Source of the DNA: Escherichia phage vB_EcoP-101120B1-2
Length of the DNA stretch: 39,845 nt
Sequence record: MZ234022.1
Strand: one strand, 5' to 3'
In this document: positions 10,791 through 35,890 of the stretch, piece after piece
Numbering within the stretch: the stretch's first letter is position 1
How the letters are laid out: each line of letters starts with the position of its first letter
The notes under the pieces: model-generated
The model's input: the letters and a program-made list of their open reading frames with translations, nothing else
What the model was told of the DNA's origin: nothing
Databases searched by the model: none
Program-made: the position numbers and the translations under genes

Positions 10791-10854
10791 CGACAGTGAT
10801 TAACTACAGGGTCTTTGAGTCTACATCTGAAGGCCCTGACTGATAGTCACTAAC
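10791..10854 (+). promoter_or_regulatory. Conserved 64-nt hairpin, early family copy 1 (candidate RNase III site, T7 R0.3 position)
   Basis: Near-identical to 11939..12002 (one mismatch); shorter variant at 11119..11171. Upper stem CAGGGTCTT/AAGGCCCTG, lower stem AGTGA/TCACT, separated by an internal loop, as in T7 RNase III sites. Confidence 0.55.
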
Positions 10855-10861
10855 TTAACGG

Positions 10862-11116
10862 ATGGACACTATGAAACACTTAAGCACAATCACTAATCGC
10901 AATGAAGTATTCGTGAACACTAAAGGTTATGCGTGGATTCAGCTTAAAGAGATGAGAGGAGCGCGTCACCGTGTGGTAGTTCGCAAGGTATCAAGCAAGC
11001 CGTTCAGCAACTACAGCGTAGATACTATGCGTATAGACAACGAGACTTACCTGATAGACTCGCAGATAACCGTGCGTCCTACAGCGGGCATCTCAGCTCC
11101 TTATTTCGCTAACTGA
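10862..11116 (+). CDS. Hypothetical early protein (84 aa), first gene of the early operon, upstream of the Ocr homolog
   Basis: ORF bracketed by two copies of the conserved early hairpin; MDTMKHLSTITNRNEVFVNTKGYAWIQLKEMRGARHRVVVRKV...; basic. No T7 counterpart recognised. Confidence 0.55.
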   Translation: MDTMKHLSTITNRNEVFVNTKGYAWIQLKEMRGARHRVVVRKVSSKPFSNYSVDTMRIDNETYLIDSQITVRPTAGISAPYFAN

Positions 11117-11118
11117 GA

Positions 11119-11171
11119 GTGATTAACTACAGGTCGTTAGACTGATAGCGGCCTGACTGATAGTCACTAAC
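11119..11171 (+). promoter_or_regulatory. Conserved hairpin, early family copy 2 (shorter variant) immediately upstream of the Ocr homolog
   Basis: GAGTGATTAACTACAGG...GGCCTGACTGATAGTCACTAAC shares both flanking arms with copies 1 and 3. Confidence 0.45.
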
Positions 11172-11938: not shown

Positions 11939-12002
11939 CGACAGTGATTAACTACAGGGTCTTTGAGTCTACATCTGAAGGCCCTGACTGATAGCCACTA
12001 AC
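11939..12002 (+). promoter_or_regulatory. Conserved 64-nt hairpin, early family copy 3 (candidate RNase III site)
   Basis: 63 of 64 nt identical to 10791..10854; immediately upstream of ORF 12019. Confidence 0.55.
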
Positions 12003-21588: not shown

Positions 21589-21667
21589 GTCTCCATAGCT
21601 CAAACGGTAGAGCGGTGGGTCGTGATGGCCTATTGCGATTAGGGTTCGAATCCCCGTGGAGACGCCA
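21589..21667 (+). tRNA. tRNA-like element: canonical acceptor stem, D-arm, T-arm and 3' CCA, but a non-canonical anticodon region (possible degenerate tRNA or tRNA-like processing signal)
   Basis: GTCTCCA (21589-95) pairs perfectly with TGGAGAC (21657-63), followed by G and CCA. D-arm GCTC-AAACGGTA-GAGC. T-arm TAGGG-TTCGAAT-CCCCG with one A-C mismatch. No 5-bp stem with a 7-nt loop and U33 could be folded in the intervening 26 nt. Confidence 0.4.
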
Positions 21668-30188: not shown

Positions 30189-31073
30189 ATGTCTCAATCA
30201 GTTTATGCCGAGTTCGGCGTTAGCTCTAATGCAATCACTGGTTCCGTTGAGGACCTGAACGAACACCAGAAGTCTATGCTTGAACAGGACGTAGCTGTTC
30301 GTGATGGCGATGACGCTATTACCTTCAAGCAACTGGAAGCCGAAAACGAAGAGGCGACCGAAGAAGACGAGAACGTCGAAGAGACGGAGGGTGCTGAAGA
30401 CAACGAGTCCGATGACGAAGAGTCTGAGACCGATGGTGAGCAGCCTGAGTTCATTGAACTGGGTGATGCACCGAAAGAGCTGACCGAAAGTGTCACCGCT
30501 CTGGATGAAAACGAAGCTGCATTTGACGACATGGTGTCTTCCGCTGTAGAAGCTGGCAAGGTCACTGCTGATGAAATTACCGCTATCAAGGCTGAATACG
30601 CCAAGGACGGTAAGCTGTCTGACGCATCCTACGCTAAGTTGCAGGAAGCAGGTTACACCAAGCGTTTCGTAGATTCGTTTGTCCGTGGTCAGGAAGCTCT
30701 GGCTGAACAGTATGCTGCTGGAGTGGTTCGCTACGCTGGTGGAGCTGAACAGTTTAACCGCATTCTGTCTCACCTTGAGTCAACCGACCCGTCAACTCGT
30801 GAGGCACTGGAAGCTGCTATCGTTCGTAAGGACATTTCGACTACCAAAGCTCTGCTGAATCTGGCTGGCAAGACTCTGGGTAAAGCTGTTGGTGTTAAAC
30901 CTCAGCGTACCATCACCACTCAGGCTAAACCTGTGGTCGCACCTAAGGCTCCTCAGACCGAAGCATTCAGCTCCAAGGCTGACATGATTAAGGCTATGAG
31001 TGACCCGCGATACCTTCGTGACGCTAAGTACACGATGGAAGTACGCGCTAAGGTAGCTGCCTCAAGCCTGTAG
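30189..31073 (+). CDS. Capsid assembly scaffolding protein (gp9 homolog)
   Basis: Start at ATG 30189 (MSQSVYAEFGV, cf. T7 VYASFGV) after SD AAGGAG; highly acidic N-half; C-terminal KAMSDPRY matches T7 gp9. Confidence 0.9.
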   Translation: MSQSVYAEFGVSSNAITGSVEDLNEHQKSMLEQDVAVRDGDDAITFKQLEAENEEATEEDENVEETEGAEDNESDDEESETDGEQPEFIELGDAPKELTESVTALDENEAAFDDMVSSAVEAGKVTADEITAIKAEYAKDGKLSDASYAKLQEAGYTKRFVDSFVRGQEALAEQYAAGVVRYAGGAEQFNRILSHLESTDPSTREALEAAIVRKDISTTKALLNLAGKTLGKAVGVKPQRTITTQAKPVVAPKAPQTEAFSSKADMIKAMSDPRYLRDAKYTMEVRAKVAASSL

Positions 31074-31074
31074 G

Positions 31075-31097
31075 ACTAAACTATCACTATAGGGAGA
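31075..31097 (+). promoter_or_regulatory. Phage RNA polymerase promoter (phi10 position), CTAAACTATCACTATAGGGAGAC
   Basis: Best match to a TATAGGGAGA initiating sequence, upstream of the major capsid gene. Confidence 0.8.
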
Positions 31098-32249: not shown

Positions 32250-32512
32250 CGACCTTTAAGGCCCTCTCTACAGAGGGTCCTACCTTAGAGACGTATAGTT
32301 CTACGGTGGGAACCAGCCTGAAGGTTGACTTCCCTGAGCTTTCAGATGTGACCGATTGGTCGCTGCTTGAGGTGACTACGCCTGATGGTGTTAGCTACTC
32401 CCGTAGAACCAACAGTCTCTACTTCAAGGCCACCTCTGGCGTGGAAGGTCTGGTGATTGTTGGGTATGACGGTACGCCTGTGCGTTCCTTCAACGTATCT
32501 TTCACAAACTAA
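32228..32512 (+). CDS. Minor capsid protein 10B extension: -1 frame ORF reached by programmed -1 frameshift at GGTTTTC (32222..32228); adds about 94 aa
   Basis: The -1 frame is open from 32174 to the stop at 32510-32512, overlapping the last 25 codons of gene 10. The heptamer GGTTTTC matches the T7 gene 10 frameshift site as I recall it. Tphi-like terminator follows. Confidence 0.6.
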   Translation, partial: HSGVSGLTTFKALSTEGPTLETYSSTVGTSLKVDFPELSDVTDWSLLEVTTPDGVSYSRRTNSLYFKATSGVEGLVIVGYDGTPVRSFNVSFTN

Positions 32513-32517
32513 TTGAA

Positions 32518-32557
32518 ACCCCTTGGGTGCCTTCGGGTGCTTGAGGGGTTTTTTTTG
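32518..32557 (+). terminator. Tphi-like intrinsic terminator (hairpin plus T8 run)
   Basis: AACCCCTTGGGTGCCTTCGGGTGCTTGAGGGGTTTTTTTT resembles T7 Tphi AACCCCTTGGGGCCTCTAAACGGGTCTTGAGGGGTTTTTTG. Confidence 0.8.
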
Positions 32558-32672: not shown

Positions 32673-33239
32673 ATGTCTCAATACATTCCACTTAATGCTA
32701 ACGATGACTTAGATGCCATCAACGATATGTTAGCTGCTATTGGTGAACCAGCAGTCCTACAGCTTGACGAAGGTAACGCTGACGTCTCGAACGCTCAACG
32801 TATCCTGCATCGTGTTAATCGTCAGGTCCAAGCTAAAGGCTGGAACTTTAACATCAACGAAGCTGCTGTCCTGACGCCTGATGTCCAAGACAACAGGATT
32901 CGATTCCTGCCGTCTTACCTTCGGGTCATGACTGCTGGGACCACCAGCTACTACAGCAACATGGGTGGATACCTATACGACCTGTCCACTCAGTCAACCA
33001 CTTTCACCGACCCTATAACGGTAGAGCTTGTTGAGATGAAACCGTTCTCGGAGATGCCTGTGGTATTCAGGGACTACATCGTTACCAAGGCCAGCCGTGA
33101 GTTCAACGCTAAGTTCTTCGGTAGCCCAGAGTCTGAACTGTACCTTCGTGAGCAGGAATCAGAACTCTATCAGCAGGTCATGGAATACGAGATGGACACT
33201 GGTCGCTACAACATGATGTCCGACATCGGGAGGGACTAA
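32673..33239 (+). CDS. Tail tubular protein A (gp11 homolog)
   Basis: 188 aa, SD AAGGAG, at the T7 gene 11 position. Confidence 0.85.
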   Translation: MSQYIPLNANDDLDAINDMLAAIGEPAVLQLDEGNADVSNAQRILHRVNRQVQAKGWNFNINEAAVLTPDVQDNRIRFLPSYLRVMTAGTTSYYSNMGGYLYDLSTQSTTFTDPITVELVEMKPFSEMPVVFRDYIVTKASREFNAKFFGSPESELYLREQESELYQQVMEYEMDTGRYNMMSDIGRD

Positions 33240-33466
33240 TGGCTAGTCACAACCTGAAGATTCACCGCCAGCACTTTGGTCCGGTACAACTAGGTCTAAA
33301 GACAGCAGAGCTGAGACTTAACGACCGGGACTTTAAGGTTGGCGACTGGCTTATCCTGAATGAGTGGGACAACGGGTATACTGGACAACAGGTAGCACGT
33401 AAGGTTGTCCACATTGCTGACGTTGGTGACATCGCTGAGGGATACGTCCTAATGAGTATGATTTAA
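33239..33466 (+). CDS. ASCH/PUA-like small protein (DUF3850-like, 75 aa) inserted between tail tubular genes A and B
   Basis: KIHRQHFGPVQLGLKTAELRLNDRDFKVGDWLILNEWD...YTGQQVARKVVHI...EGYVLMSM fits the DUF3850 pattern as I recall it; TAATG coupling with gp11. T7 has no gene here. Confidence 0.6.
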   Translation: MASHNLKIHRQHFGPVQLGLKTAELRLNDRDFKVGDWLILNEWDNGYTGQQVARKVVHIADVGDIAEGYVLMSMI

Positions 33467-33475
33467 GGAGGGCCT

Positions 33476-35833
33476 ATGCCACTAATTACTCAATCAATCA
33501 AGAACCTTAAAGGTGGCATTAGCCAGCAGCCAGACATCCTGAGGTTCTCGGACCAAGGCGAAGAACAGGTAAACTGCTGGTCATCAGAGAGTGATGGCCT
33601 ACAGAAGCGTCCACCTACAGTCTTCAAGAGACGTCTTAACATCGACGTTGGGAGCAACCCTAAGTTCCACCTGATTAACCGTGACGAGCATGAGCAGTAT
33701 TACATCGTGTTCAACGGGTCAAACATTCAGGTAGTTGACTTGAGTGGTAATCAATACTCAGTTTCCGGTGCGGTAGATTACGTTAAGTCGTCCAACCCGC
33801 GAGATGACATCCGTGTCGTTACTGTTGCAGACTATACGTTCGTCGTTAACCGTAAGGTTGTCGTTAAAGGTGGAAGCGATAAGTCACACTCTGGTTATAA
33901 TCGTAAAGCACGCGCTTTAATTAACCTGCGCGGTGGACAGTATGGTCGCACCCTTAAGGTAGGAATCAACGGTGGAGTTAAGGTCTCGCATAAGCTGCCA
34001 GCAGGTAATGATGCCGAGAATGACCCACCTAAGGTGGACGCTCAAGCCATTGGTGCAGCTCTGAGAGACCTTCTTGTTGCTGCCTATCCTACCTTCACGT
34101 TCGACCTTGGGTCTGGCTTCCTGCTAATCACAGCTCCTTCAGGGACCGACATTAACTCAGTGGAGACTGAGGATGGATACGCTAACCAGCTAATCAGCCC
34201 AGTCCTCGACACGGTGCAAACAATCTCTAAGTTGCCTCTTGCGGCTCCAAATGGGTACATCATTAAGATTCAAGGTGAGACCAACAGTAGCGCCGATGAA
34301 TATTACGTGATGTACGACTCCAACACTAAGACGTGGAAGGAGACAGTAGAGCCGGGAGTGGTCACTGGGTTCGATAACACCACAATGCCACATGCTCTGG
34401 TGAGACAATCTGACGGCTCCTTTGAGTTCAAGACTCTGGACTGGTCCAAGCGTGGTGCTGGTAATGATGACACAAACCCTATGCCTAGCTTCGTGGATGC
34501 CACGATTAACGATGTGTTCTTCTACAGGAACAGGCTGGGGTTCTTGTCAGGTGAGAACGTAATCATGAGCCGTTCAGCCAGCTACTTTGCGTTCTTCCCT
34601 AAGAGTGTGGCGACACTGAGTGATGATGACCCTATTGATGTAGCTGTAAGTCACCCTAGAATCTCAATACTTAAGTATGCCGTTCCGTTTAGCGAGCAGC
34701 TACTACTTTGGTCTGATGAGGTTCAGTTTGTGATGACAAGCTCTGGGGTCCTTACCTCGAAGTCTATCCAGCTTGATGTAGGCTCAGAGTTTGCCTTAGG
34801 TGACAATGCCAGACCGTTCGCTGTAGGACGCTCAGTCTTCTTCTCAGCTCCTCGTGGGTCATTCACCAGCATTAAGAGATACTTCGCTGTAGCTGATGTG
34901 TCTGATGTGAAGGATGCCGATGATACAACTGGTCACGTACTGTCCTACATCCCTAACGGGGTGTTTGATATTCAAGGTACAGGGACTGAGAACTACATCT
35001 GCGTCAACTCTACAGGTGCATACAACCGTATCTACATCTACAAGTTCTTGTTTAAGGATGGCGTACAGCTTCAAGCCTCTTGGTCACACTGGGAGTTCCC
35101 TAAAGCTGATAAGATTCTGGCATCTGCTTCCATTGGCTCTACCATGTTCATTGTTCGTCAGCACCAAGGCGGCGTGGACCTTGAGCACCTTAAGTTCATC
35201 AAGGAGGCAACTGACTTTCCGTCAGAGCCGTATAGACTCCACGTTGACTCCAAGGTGTCTATGGTCATCCCAATTGGCTCGTTTAATGCTGACACATATA
35301 AGACTACGGTTGACATTGGTGCTGCTTATGGTGGTAATGCCCCTTCTCCCGGTCGGTACTATCTGATTGACAGTCAGGGTGCTTATTTGGACCTTGGGGA
35401 CTTGACCAGTATCTCTACTGTGATTACCCTCAACGGCGATTGGTCAGGACGTACAGTGTTCATCGGGAGGCCCTATCTGATGTCCTACAAGTTCTCACGG
35501 TTCCTGATTAAGATTGAAGATGATAGTGGCACCCAGTCTGAAGACACTGGTCGTCTACAGCTTCGTCGGGCTTGGGTCAACTACAAGGACACTGGCGCTC
35601 TGAGACTCATTGTCAGAAACGGTGAGCGAGAGTTCGTTAACACCTTTAATGGGTACACCCTTGGTCAGCAGACCATAGGGACTACTAACATTGGTGACGG
35701 GCAGTATCGCTTCGCTATGAATGGTAACGCATTGACCACGAGTCTAACCTTAGAGTCCGACTATCCTACCCCAGTGTCAATCGTTGGGTGTGGCTGGGAG
35801 GCGTCATACGCTAAGAAAGCTCGTTCCGTTTAA
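33476..35833 (+). CDS. Tail tubular protein B (gp12 homolog)
   Basis: 785 aa, SD AAGGAGGG, at the T7 gene 12 position (T7 gp12 794 aa). Confidence 0.9.
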   Translation: MPLITQSIKNLKGGISQQPDILRFSDQGEEQVNCWSSESDGLQKRPPTVFKRRLNIDVGSNPKFHLINRDEHEQYYIVFNGSNIQVVDLSGNQYSVSGAVDYVKSSNPRDDIRVVTVADYTFVVNRKVVVKGGSDKSHSGYNRKARALINLRGGQYGRTLKVGINGGVKVSHKLPAGNDAENDPPKVDAQAIGAALRDLLVAAYPTFTFDLGSGFLLITAPSGTDINSVETEDGYANQLISPVLDTVQTISKLPLAAPNGYIIKIQGETNSSADEYYVMYDSNTKTWKETVEPGVVTGFDNTTMPHALVRQSDGSFEFKTLDWSKRGAGNDDTNPMPSFVDATINDVFFYRNRLGFLSGENVIMSRSASYFAFFPKSVATLSDDDPIDVAVSHPRISILKYAVPFSEQLLLWSDEVQFVMTSSGVLTSKSIQLDVGSEFALGDNARPFAVGRSVFFSAPRGSFTSIKRYFAVADVSDVKDADDTTGHVLSYIPNGVFDIQGTGTENYICVNSTGAYNRIYIYKFLFKDGVQLQASWSHWEFPKADKILASASIGSTMFIVRQHQGGVDLEHLKFIKEATDFPSEPYRLHVDSKVSMVIPIGSFNADTYKTTVDIGAAYGGNAPSPGRYYLIDSQGAYLDLGDLTSISTVITLNGDWSGRTVFIGRPYLMSYKFSRFLIKIEDDSGTQSEDTGRLQLRRAWVNYKDTGALRLIVRNGEREFVNTFNGYTLGQQTIGTTNIGDGQYRFAMNGNALTTSLTLESDYPTPVSIVGCGWEASYAKKARSV

Positions 35834-35840
35834 CTTATTG

Positions 35841-35890
35841 AAGGGCCTATAGATTTACCTTAACTATCACTATAGGGACTATAGGCCCTT
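35841..35890 (+). repeat. Perfect 12-bp inverted repeat (AAGGGCCTATAG / CTATAGGCCCTT) bracketing the gene 13 promoter (candidate processing hairpin, R13 position)
   Basis: Arms at 35841-35852 and 35879-35890 are exact reverse complements; the promoter core lies in the 26-nt loop. Confidence 0.5.
35858..35880 (+). promoter_or_regulatory. Phage RNA polymerase promoter (phi13 position), CTTAACTATCACTATAGGGACTA
   Basis: Core motif, intergenic between genes 12 and 13. Confidence 0.75.

Follow-up and report, generated by a model that had tools for sequence, protein, structure and literature searches.

A stand-alone DUF3850/ASCH-fold gene between the tail tubular genes of a Kayfunavirus-like coliphage: a probable late, non-structural accessory

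The stretch of DNA analysed here, 39,845 nucleotides (nt) of Escherichia phage vB_EcoP-101120B1-2 (sequence record MZ234022.1; hereafter the window, with positions counted from its first letter), raises a simple question: why should a T7-like phage carry a small gene between its two tail tubular genes? In T7, genes 11 and 12 lie 23 nt apart with no open reading frame (ORF) in between, so the 75-codon gene found at 33239..33466 on the plus strand of the window (ATG start, TAA stop; gene 11.5 in this text, 11.05 in phage CR44b) interrupts a normally adjacent pair. We suggest, with a probability of roughly 0.55, that its product, gp11.5, is a stand-alone DUF3850/ASCH barrel, made late, absent from the virion, dispensable and nevertheless maintained by selection, with a pocket for a nucleobase that is probably modified. 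The two halves of this proposal differ in strength, in that the assignment of gp11.5 as a non-structural accessory protein of ASCH fold is much firmer than the proposal that DNA or a modified base is its ligand.

Family and fold follow directly from profile searches. The protein matches the Pfam DUF3850 profile (PF12961) with an E-value of 1.9e-19 and 70.1 bits against a cut-off of 22.9, residues 4-73 covering profile positions 2-76/77, and the Pfam ASCH profile (PF04266) with an E-value of 1.4e-5 and 26.2 bits against a cut-off of 21.2. The DUF3850/ASCH assignment, which a first-pass annotation of this DNA had proposed from the letters and translations only, is thus upheld by profile matches above both cut-offs. 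The sole relative of known structure by sequence is PDB entry 3iuw (E 1.2e-10 with the single sequence, 5.7e-24 with the family profile), an 83-residue structural-genomics entry from Enterococcus faecalis named 'activating signal cointegrator', which is the solved representative of DUF3850 and whose fold gp11.5 shares. A fold search of BFVD with gp11.5 matched only uncharacterised DUF3850 and ASCH phage proteins, and YTH domains are among its structural neighbours. Pfam shows DUF3850 and ASCH only, with no nuclease domain of the HNH, GIY-YIG, LAGLIDADG or EndoVII type; NCBIfam gave no match, the PADLOC defence models gave only a marginal one (14 bits, E 0.007), and Rfam, whose sole match in the window is a tRNA at 21589, has none at or around gene 11.5. 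With the single protein as query, a word-indexed search for homologs yielded no more than 31 sequences, all of them close relatives; with a profile it gave 3,460 matches, among which the 120 listed are nearly all single-domain proteins with generic names. We conclude that gp11.5 is a free-standing, minimal domain of the ASCH superfamily (PUA-like beta-barrel), belonging to the DUF3850 family.

The conserved residues of this small domain are concentrated in one polar stretch. Codons 20-30 (LKTAELRLNDR; 33296..33328, plus strand) join the ASCH octapeptide GxKxxExR to an N-D-R that is specific to DUF3850, and together they form a polar motif that is invariant in the family. Read directly, the ASCH signature is intact as G19-L-K21-T-A-E24-L-R26, and the longer DUF3850 motif, K-x-x-E-x-R-x-N-D-R followed by G-D, is complete, D36 included. 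An alignment of diverse members shows no variation at K21, E24, R26, N28, D29, R30 and G35, and 94 fused homologs show almost none; H4, K7, D36, E42, G49 and S73 are nearly invariant, W37 and W43 are conserved solely within Kayfunavirus, and Y47 and Y69 are semi-conserved across the family. So dense a polar constellation within 75 residues suggests a specific pocket or active site. In the mechanism that we propose, the conserved loop (G19, K21, E24, R26 and N28-D29-R30), together with D36 and E42, would form a pocket predicted to accept a nucleobase, either flipped out of a nucleic acid or carried by a free nucleoside or nucleotide, and probably modified (methylated or acylated, for example), which gp11.5 would then bind or hydrolyse.

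Hydrolysis brings to mind YqfB, the N4-acetylcytidine (ac4C) amidohydrolase of E. coli (PDB 1te7/9kyf), and human EOLA1. Like these, gp11.5 is a small, acidic, single-domain protein with a PUA-like barrel and a helix after strand 1; the substrates of YqfB-type enzymes, which resemble it in size and acidity, are free nucleosides (PMC9599836). Alignment with hhalign places G-L-K21-T-A-E24-L-R26 of gp11.5 opposite G-R-K21-T-I-T24-I-R26 of YqfB (whose sequence was checked against 1te7 and 9kyf), over residues 9-47 only and with a probability of 61%; of the YqfB catalytic residues K21, T24, R26 and E74 (PMC9599836), Lys21 and Arg26 are both kept. Since one DUF3850 homolog is in addition fused to a dATP/dGTP, that is, deoxynucleoside triphosphate, pyrophosphohydrolase, gp11.5 could be pictured as an amidohydrolase of the YqfB/EOLA1 type that deacylates ac4C or related free nucleosides in a late pyrimidine salvage. 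We consider this distinctly unlikely. Unlike YqfB, gp11.5 has the canonical ASCH Glu in place of the Thr24 nucleophile, a Glu that is invariant across the family; it is also ~28 residues shorter, and with the alignment ending at residue 47 and the protein at residue 75 the segment that holds Glu74 has no alignable counterpart. Salvage of ac4C, moreover, meets no obvious need of a T7-like phage. Because the Thr nucleophile is replaced and the E74 segment cannot be aligned, gp11.5 would not appear to be a YqfB-type amidohydrolase, though a different hydrolytic chemistry may be possible.

PUA-like domains that deal with modified bases offer a second set of comparisons: YTH (N6-methyladenine-type mark m6A), EVE/SRA (5-methylcytosine, 5mC, and 5-hydroxymethylcytosine, 5hmC), the ASCH sensors of type IV restriction, and the 5hmC DNA glycosylase BapA. 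Unlike these readers and enzymes, gp11.5 is phage-encoded and stands alone, with no effector nuclease domain, and no conserved aromatic cage is evident in its alignment.

That gene 11.5 is real, and not a chance ORF, follows from its conservation: in 20 related loci an ortholog with the same frame, start and length occupies this site, and the median pairwise ratio of nonsynonymous to synonymous substitution (dN/dS) is 0.12 for nine divergent orthologs (Nei-Gojobori; synonymous sites near saturation), compared with 0.09 and 0.15 for the flanking genes 11 and 12, respectively. Gene 11.5 is under purifying selection where it is present. Two minus-strand ORFs at the same place, 33262..33432 and 33296..33412, were considered and found unsupported, the substitutions fitting the plus-strand frame.

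The flanks confirm the position, between tail tubular genes A and B, that the first-pass annotation had given to the 75-residue ORF. Upstream, on the same strand, lies gene 11 (32673..33239; tail tubular protein A, the gatekeeper or adaptor; Pfam Tube, E 2.8e-46), and downstream gene 12 (33476..35833; tail tubular protein B, the nozzle; Pfam Phage_nozzle, 1098 bits, E 0). The stop of gene 11 (TAA, 33237-33239) and the ATG of gene 11.5 (33239-33241) have one base in common, forming a TAATG overlap (33237..33241, plus strand) that is identical in 20 of 20 syntenic loci. Four nt upstream of this ATG a Shine-Dalgarno sequence, GGGAGGG (33228..33234, plus strand), is embedded in the last codons of gene 11, which encode Gly-Arg. 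The overlap is a matter of observation, and the translational coupling to gene 11 claimed earlier would be its probable consequence. All phages that have gene 11.5 keep the purine run (GGGAGGG or GGGAGAG), and so do those of K1F type, in which it serves gene 12. Dev2 has no start that overlaps the end of gene 11, and there the run reads GGTCGAG through synonymous changes (Gly-Arg codons GGT CGA vs GGG AGG). This loss supports the view that the embedded Shine-Dalgarno sequence is functional. At the other end, the Shine-Dalgarno sequence of gene 12, AAGGAGGG (33465..33472, plus strand), overlaps the stop codon of gene 11.5 and resembles the gene 11/12 junction of T7, with 9 bases between that stop and the gene 12 start at 33476.

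Gene 11.5 belongs to a late transcription unit. The promoters of the phage RNA polymerase form a ten-copy repeat, ACTAAACTATCACTATAGG, of which the nearest upstream of genes 10, 11, 11.5 and 12 is phi10-like (31072..31093, plus strand) and the next, phi13-like (35855..35876, plus strand), lies downstream of gene 12 and before gene 13. No copy falls between 31093 and 35855, and a Tphi-like intrinsic terminator (32515..32552, plus strand; a 17-bp stem followed by a T run) separates gene 10 from gene 11, so genes 11, 11.5 and 12 must be transcribed late by read-through, as in T7; a scan for sigma-70 promoters and terminators found nothing specific to gene 11.5. Gp11.5 would thus be made late from the phi10 read-through transcript, its translation coupled to that of tail gene 11.

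The distribution of the gene among related phages is patchy. By tblastn, gp11.5 was found in 489 phage records, ~154 of them at >=80% identity. The stretch from gene 11 to gene 12 is 100% identical to that of Escherichia phage vB_EcoP-101120B2 (MZ234023) and 94-97% identical to that of many Kayfunavirus (K1F-like) phages, and orthologs at 61-89% identity occupy the same junction in Kayfunavirus of Enterobacter, Kosakonia, Pectobacterium, Hafnia and Escherichia. The type phage K1F lacks gene 11.5, the ATG of its gene 12 standing exactly at the position of the 11.5 ATG and reusing the GGGAGGGACTAATG junction. A K1F-like single-piece junction recurs in 25 of the 60 best-matching records, many of them independent isolates; in the six such records retrieved the boundaries are identical, and gp11 and gp12 are ~98% identical to those of the window. 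In all, gene 11.5 is absent, with genes 11 and 12 intact, from T7, K1F, pO2, ZG49, ST1749, phiHAO2-2, EcoP-R1, Pipis and the Cronobacter phage Dev2, whose own junction consists of TAA, an 11-nt spacer with its own Shine-Dalgarno sequence, and ATG. The Citrobacter phages SH3 and SH4 also lack it (tables in PMC4925675).

In trees built from gp11 and gp12 by neighbour joining, gene 11.5 is present in all basal lineages (EclP_26, Kc166A/LET1, ENT2/EV136_1 and CR44b), K1F-type phages fall in the crown clade, intermixed with carriers, and Dev2 has a carrier, GA2A, as its sister. Most parsimoniously, the ancestor of the genus had gene 11.5, and at least two deletions with distinct boundaries followed, one in the manner of K1F and one in that of Dev2. 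The opposite polarity, with the K1F state as ancestral, was rejected on the grounds that the basal lineages are all carriers and that a T7-like gene 12 Shine-Dalgarno sequence, missing from K1F, persists behind 11.5.

A third fate is seen in CR44b, where the gene persists in altered form. Gene 11.05 (locus L097, 22053-22277) encodes a protein with 45% identity to that of the window, compared with 82% for the flanking gp11 and 76% for gp12, and its substitutions (K7 to I, E24 to D, N28-D29-R30 to S-I-P, G68-Y69 to N-F) strike family-invariant residues that are kept in the other Kayfunavirus orthologs, while the ORF and the hydrophobic core are retained. Gene 11.05 thus evolves much faster than the genes beside it, a pattern that indicates relaxed selection or a changed function. 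Xenologous replacement was rejected as the source of the low identity, since the closest relatives of the CR44b protein are still Kayfunavirus 11.5 proteins.

Such a history raises the possibility that gene 11.5 is selfish or neutral cargo, for example the remnant of a mobile cassette lodged in a permissive junction. Besides the repeated loss and the decay in CR44b, the 11/12 junction attracts other genes: an ORF with an Endonuclease_7 domain (Pfam E 2.6e-20) lies between 11.5 and gene 12, overlapping the gene 12 start, in Hafnia phage vB_HpaA_yong1 (locus L090, 1939-2379), and ORF41 of Enterobacter phage B1 is an Endonuclease VII-type ORF at the same site (PMC12785254). These ORFs, of 146-158 residues and homing-endonuclease-like in appearance, are genes separate from 11.5, and they mark the junction as an insertion hotspot. 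Like such inserts and like the accessory genes of T7-like phages, gene 11.5 is polymorphic in presence between near-identical genomes, and like the small accessory genes of the T7 group it is dispensable for lytic growth. Unlike the mobile inserts, however, it has neither a promoter or terminator of its own nor a nuclease domain, and it appears to have come down vertically from the ancestor of the genus and not to have moved recently. Its G+C content (0.487, against 0.499 for the genome) and its genome-typical codon adaptation are fully ameliorated, and a dN/dS of 0.12 across lineages with saturated synonymous sites, with the family-invariant residues kept in all but CR44b, is hard to reconcile with mere cargo, which we judge very unlikely.

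Does the position then betray a role in the tail? Flanked by genes 11 and 12, the gene starts on the last base of the gene 11 stop codon and shares the late transcript, and this synteny is kept across most of the genus, as might be expected of a minor virion component or of a chaperone for gp11/gp12 tail-tube assembly. Yet K1F-type phages whose gp11 and gp12 are 98% identical to those of the window do without it, as do Dev2, SH3, SH4 and T7. The first-pass annotation had pointed to virion proteomes as a place to look for the protein. The GenBank record of CR44b carries 'mass spectrometry' match notes for gp7.3, 8, 9, 10A, 11, 12, 14, 15, 16, 17 and 17.01, thus for both neighbours of gene 11.05, and none for 11.05 itself, whose product is small and, in this phage, diverged and motif-decayed. 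The virion proteome of Enterobacter phage B1 is too shallow to help, even gp11 and gp12 having been missed, and in the literature on K1F gp11.5 and on Kayfunavirus virion mass spectrometry we found nothing decisive. Homologs elsewhere (61 loci, described below) are never beside tail genes. Together, the CR44b notes and the natural deletions in phages with the same tail proteins argue against a structural or an essential assembly role, which we regard as highly improbable. We conclude that gp11.5 is probably a dispensable, non-structural accessory and not a part of the tail; its place between tail genes would reflect an insertion at a permissive junction in an ancestor of Kayfunavirus.

Public records, MZ234023 among them, label this locus (32673-35833) inconsistently. 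Gp11 is 'tail fiber protein' in several of them, and OR594182 and OR594184 carry PHROG-derived labels here, such as 'similar to internal virion protein', in place of tail-tube names.

What the protein does has to be approached through its family, which is very large. An exhaustive profile search found 16,087 representative clusters (50% identity) at E<=1e-3, many of which are extended at the N or C terminus. In 94 longer members most of the extensions have no Pfam match; eleven carry DUF551, and single cases carry LexA, MarR or Crp-type helix-turn-helix domains or the pyrophosphohydrolase domain mentioned above. In IMG/VR, gp11/gp12 flanks occur only at loci >=85% identical to gp11.5. For 61 other, non-redundant loci we looked 2.5 kb to either side and kept the largest ORF of each flank. 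The resulting 116 proteins include Phage_GPA (8) and Rep (7) proteins, N6_N4 (6) and C5 (1) methylases, DUF3987 (5), helicases, IstB/DnaC-like proteins, NinG, Prim-Pol, Rad52, integrases, thymidylate synthase and one terminase, with no tail gene among the 116. The location of the gene among late structural genes had been called unusual, and this sample bears it out: unlike other DUF3850 members, which are found in replication, recombination and methylase regions, gene 11.5 sits among late tail genes.

Fusions point in the same direction as the neighbours. ParB-CTPase-DUF3850 fusions are phage-enriched, adjoin parA and bind CTP, and the study that describes them contains the only functional statement that we found in the DUF3850 literature (PMC12704722). 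Iyer and colleagues predicted ASCH domains to be binders of modified bases and noted Dam and ParB fusions and operonic links to N6-adenine methylases (PMC4738411), and an ASCH-like barrel has been described as a 5hmC DNA glycosylase (preprint, bioRxiv 2026.02.25.707755). An IMG/VR contig (L027, 4530-5228) encodes a Dam-DUF3850 fusion as a single 232-residue ORF, with a Dam match (PF05869, E 1.8e-35) and a C-terminal DUF3850 match (E 5.4e-28).

This family-wide context favours DNA or deoxynucleotides over RNA as the probable target. Existing labels imply that gp11.5 binds RNA, in which case it might be a small RNase or might regulate translation, its targets being late mRNAs or the tRNA or rRNA of the host: it matches PHROG 986 ('RNA-binding protein') at 2.8e-35, several GenBank records use the same name, YTH domains are among its structural neighbours, and PUA/ASCH domains were first tied to RNA metabolism, the ASCH protein ZmASCH being cited in PMC7641849 as cleaving single-stranded RNA. 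The 'RNA-binding' label is inherited, however. YqfB homologs did not bind RNA (PMC9599836), the fusion partners and neighbours (Dam, ParB, replication initiators, DNA methylases) have to do with DNA, and the computed properties of gp11.5 (8.5 kDa, isoelectric point 6.4, net charge -1) speak against RNA binding, an isoelectric point of 6.4 also arguing against a generic polyanion binder. We hold an RNA-binding role to be rather unlikely.

If the base recognised is indeed modified, one candidate source is the host. The phage genome strongly avoids Dam and Dcm sites throughout, with 6 GATC against 143 expected and 5 CCWGG against ~77, other 4-bp palindromes being near expectation; in a genome nearly free of such sites, a reader of methylated bases would see host-derived DNA or nucleotides and not phage DNA. 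It may therefore be imagined that gp11.5 is a late reader or hydrolase of modified bases that discriminates Dam/Dcm-methylated host DNA or nucleotides from the phage genome, a specific proposal that we put forward tentatively and consider unlikely as it stands. If true, gp11.5 could clean up modified nucleotides that are recycled from the DNA of the host, or could protect or mark DNA that will meet modification-dependent restriction when the next host is infected, and natural Kayfunavirus isolates with and without gene 11.5 would be the first tractable genetic system for DUF3850 function.

Several points weigh against the broader proposal of a late, non-virion barrel with a pocket for a nucleobase. 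The preference for DNA over RNA is guilt by association, and methylases flank only ~12% of the sampled loci, a raw, uncorrected share. No DUF3850 protein has been biochemically characterised, and the database names are all generic. Late expression beside tail genes is unlike the early or replication context usual for the family. The CR44b ortholog, the one for which mass-spectrometry notes exist, has lost the motif, and a protein of 8.5 kDa is easily missed by this method. Finally, the motif block is the least confident part of the predicted model of gp11.5 (lowest predicted local distance difference test score, 58), although low confidence in a conserved loop would fit a loop that becomes ordered upon ligand binding.

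The gene itself is not new: it is present in dozens of Kayfunavirus records, as a hypothetical or unknown product, 'DUF3850 domain-containing protein', 'RNA-binding protein' or 'gene 11.05'. Added here are the natural deletions with two distinct junctions, the decayed allele and the mass-spectrometry notes of CR44b, the DNA-centred context of the family and the failure of the YqfB active-site comparison. For annotation, the results argue against the name 'tail protein' and leave 'RNA-binding' as an unproven label. Their wider value lies in a handle on a very large, phage-enriched family that has no assigned function. The domain occurs alone, in an easily engineered 40-kb phage, and nature has supplied near-isogenic controls, namely two independent clean deletions and one motif-decayed allele, which makes phenotype screens straightforward (host range against defence systems, Dam/Dcm dependence, competition). 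What is learned could also inform the ParB-CTPase-DUF3850 and Dam-DUF3850 fusion proteins.

Three other features of the window deserve mention. Between the major capsid gene and the Tphi-like terminator, a 68-residue ORF (PHROG 7473; 32306-32512, plus strand) corresponds to 'gp10.1' of Dev2 and has no annotation at that position in K1F, CR44b or EV136_1; it may be another variable late accessory gene. In the early region, a 64-nt direct repeat, 98% identical, occupies 10791-10854 and 11939-12002, with shorter copies at 11115-11133 and 11152-11171; its sub-motifs GACAGTGATTAACTACAGG and CCTGACTGATAGTCACTAAC occur in three copies each and do not match the phage promoter consensus. To our knowledge, tRNA genes are not expected in T7-like phages. 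The Rfam match noted above nevertheless belongs to a tRNA-like element (21589-21667, plus strand) that immediately precedes the primase/helicase gene and has no annotation in the source record; ARAGORN calls it as tRNA-Ser (anticodon TGA), Rfam as tRNA with 38.7 bits. Of 135 matching Kayfunavirus records only ~33 contain its full region, and they label it tRNA-Thr or tRNA-OTHER.

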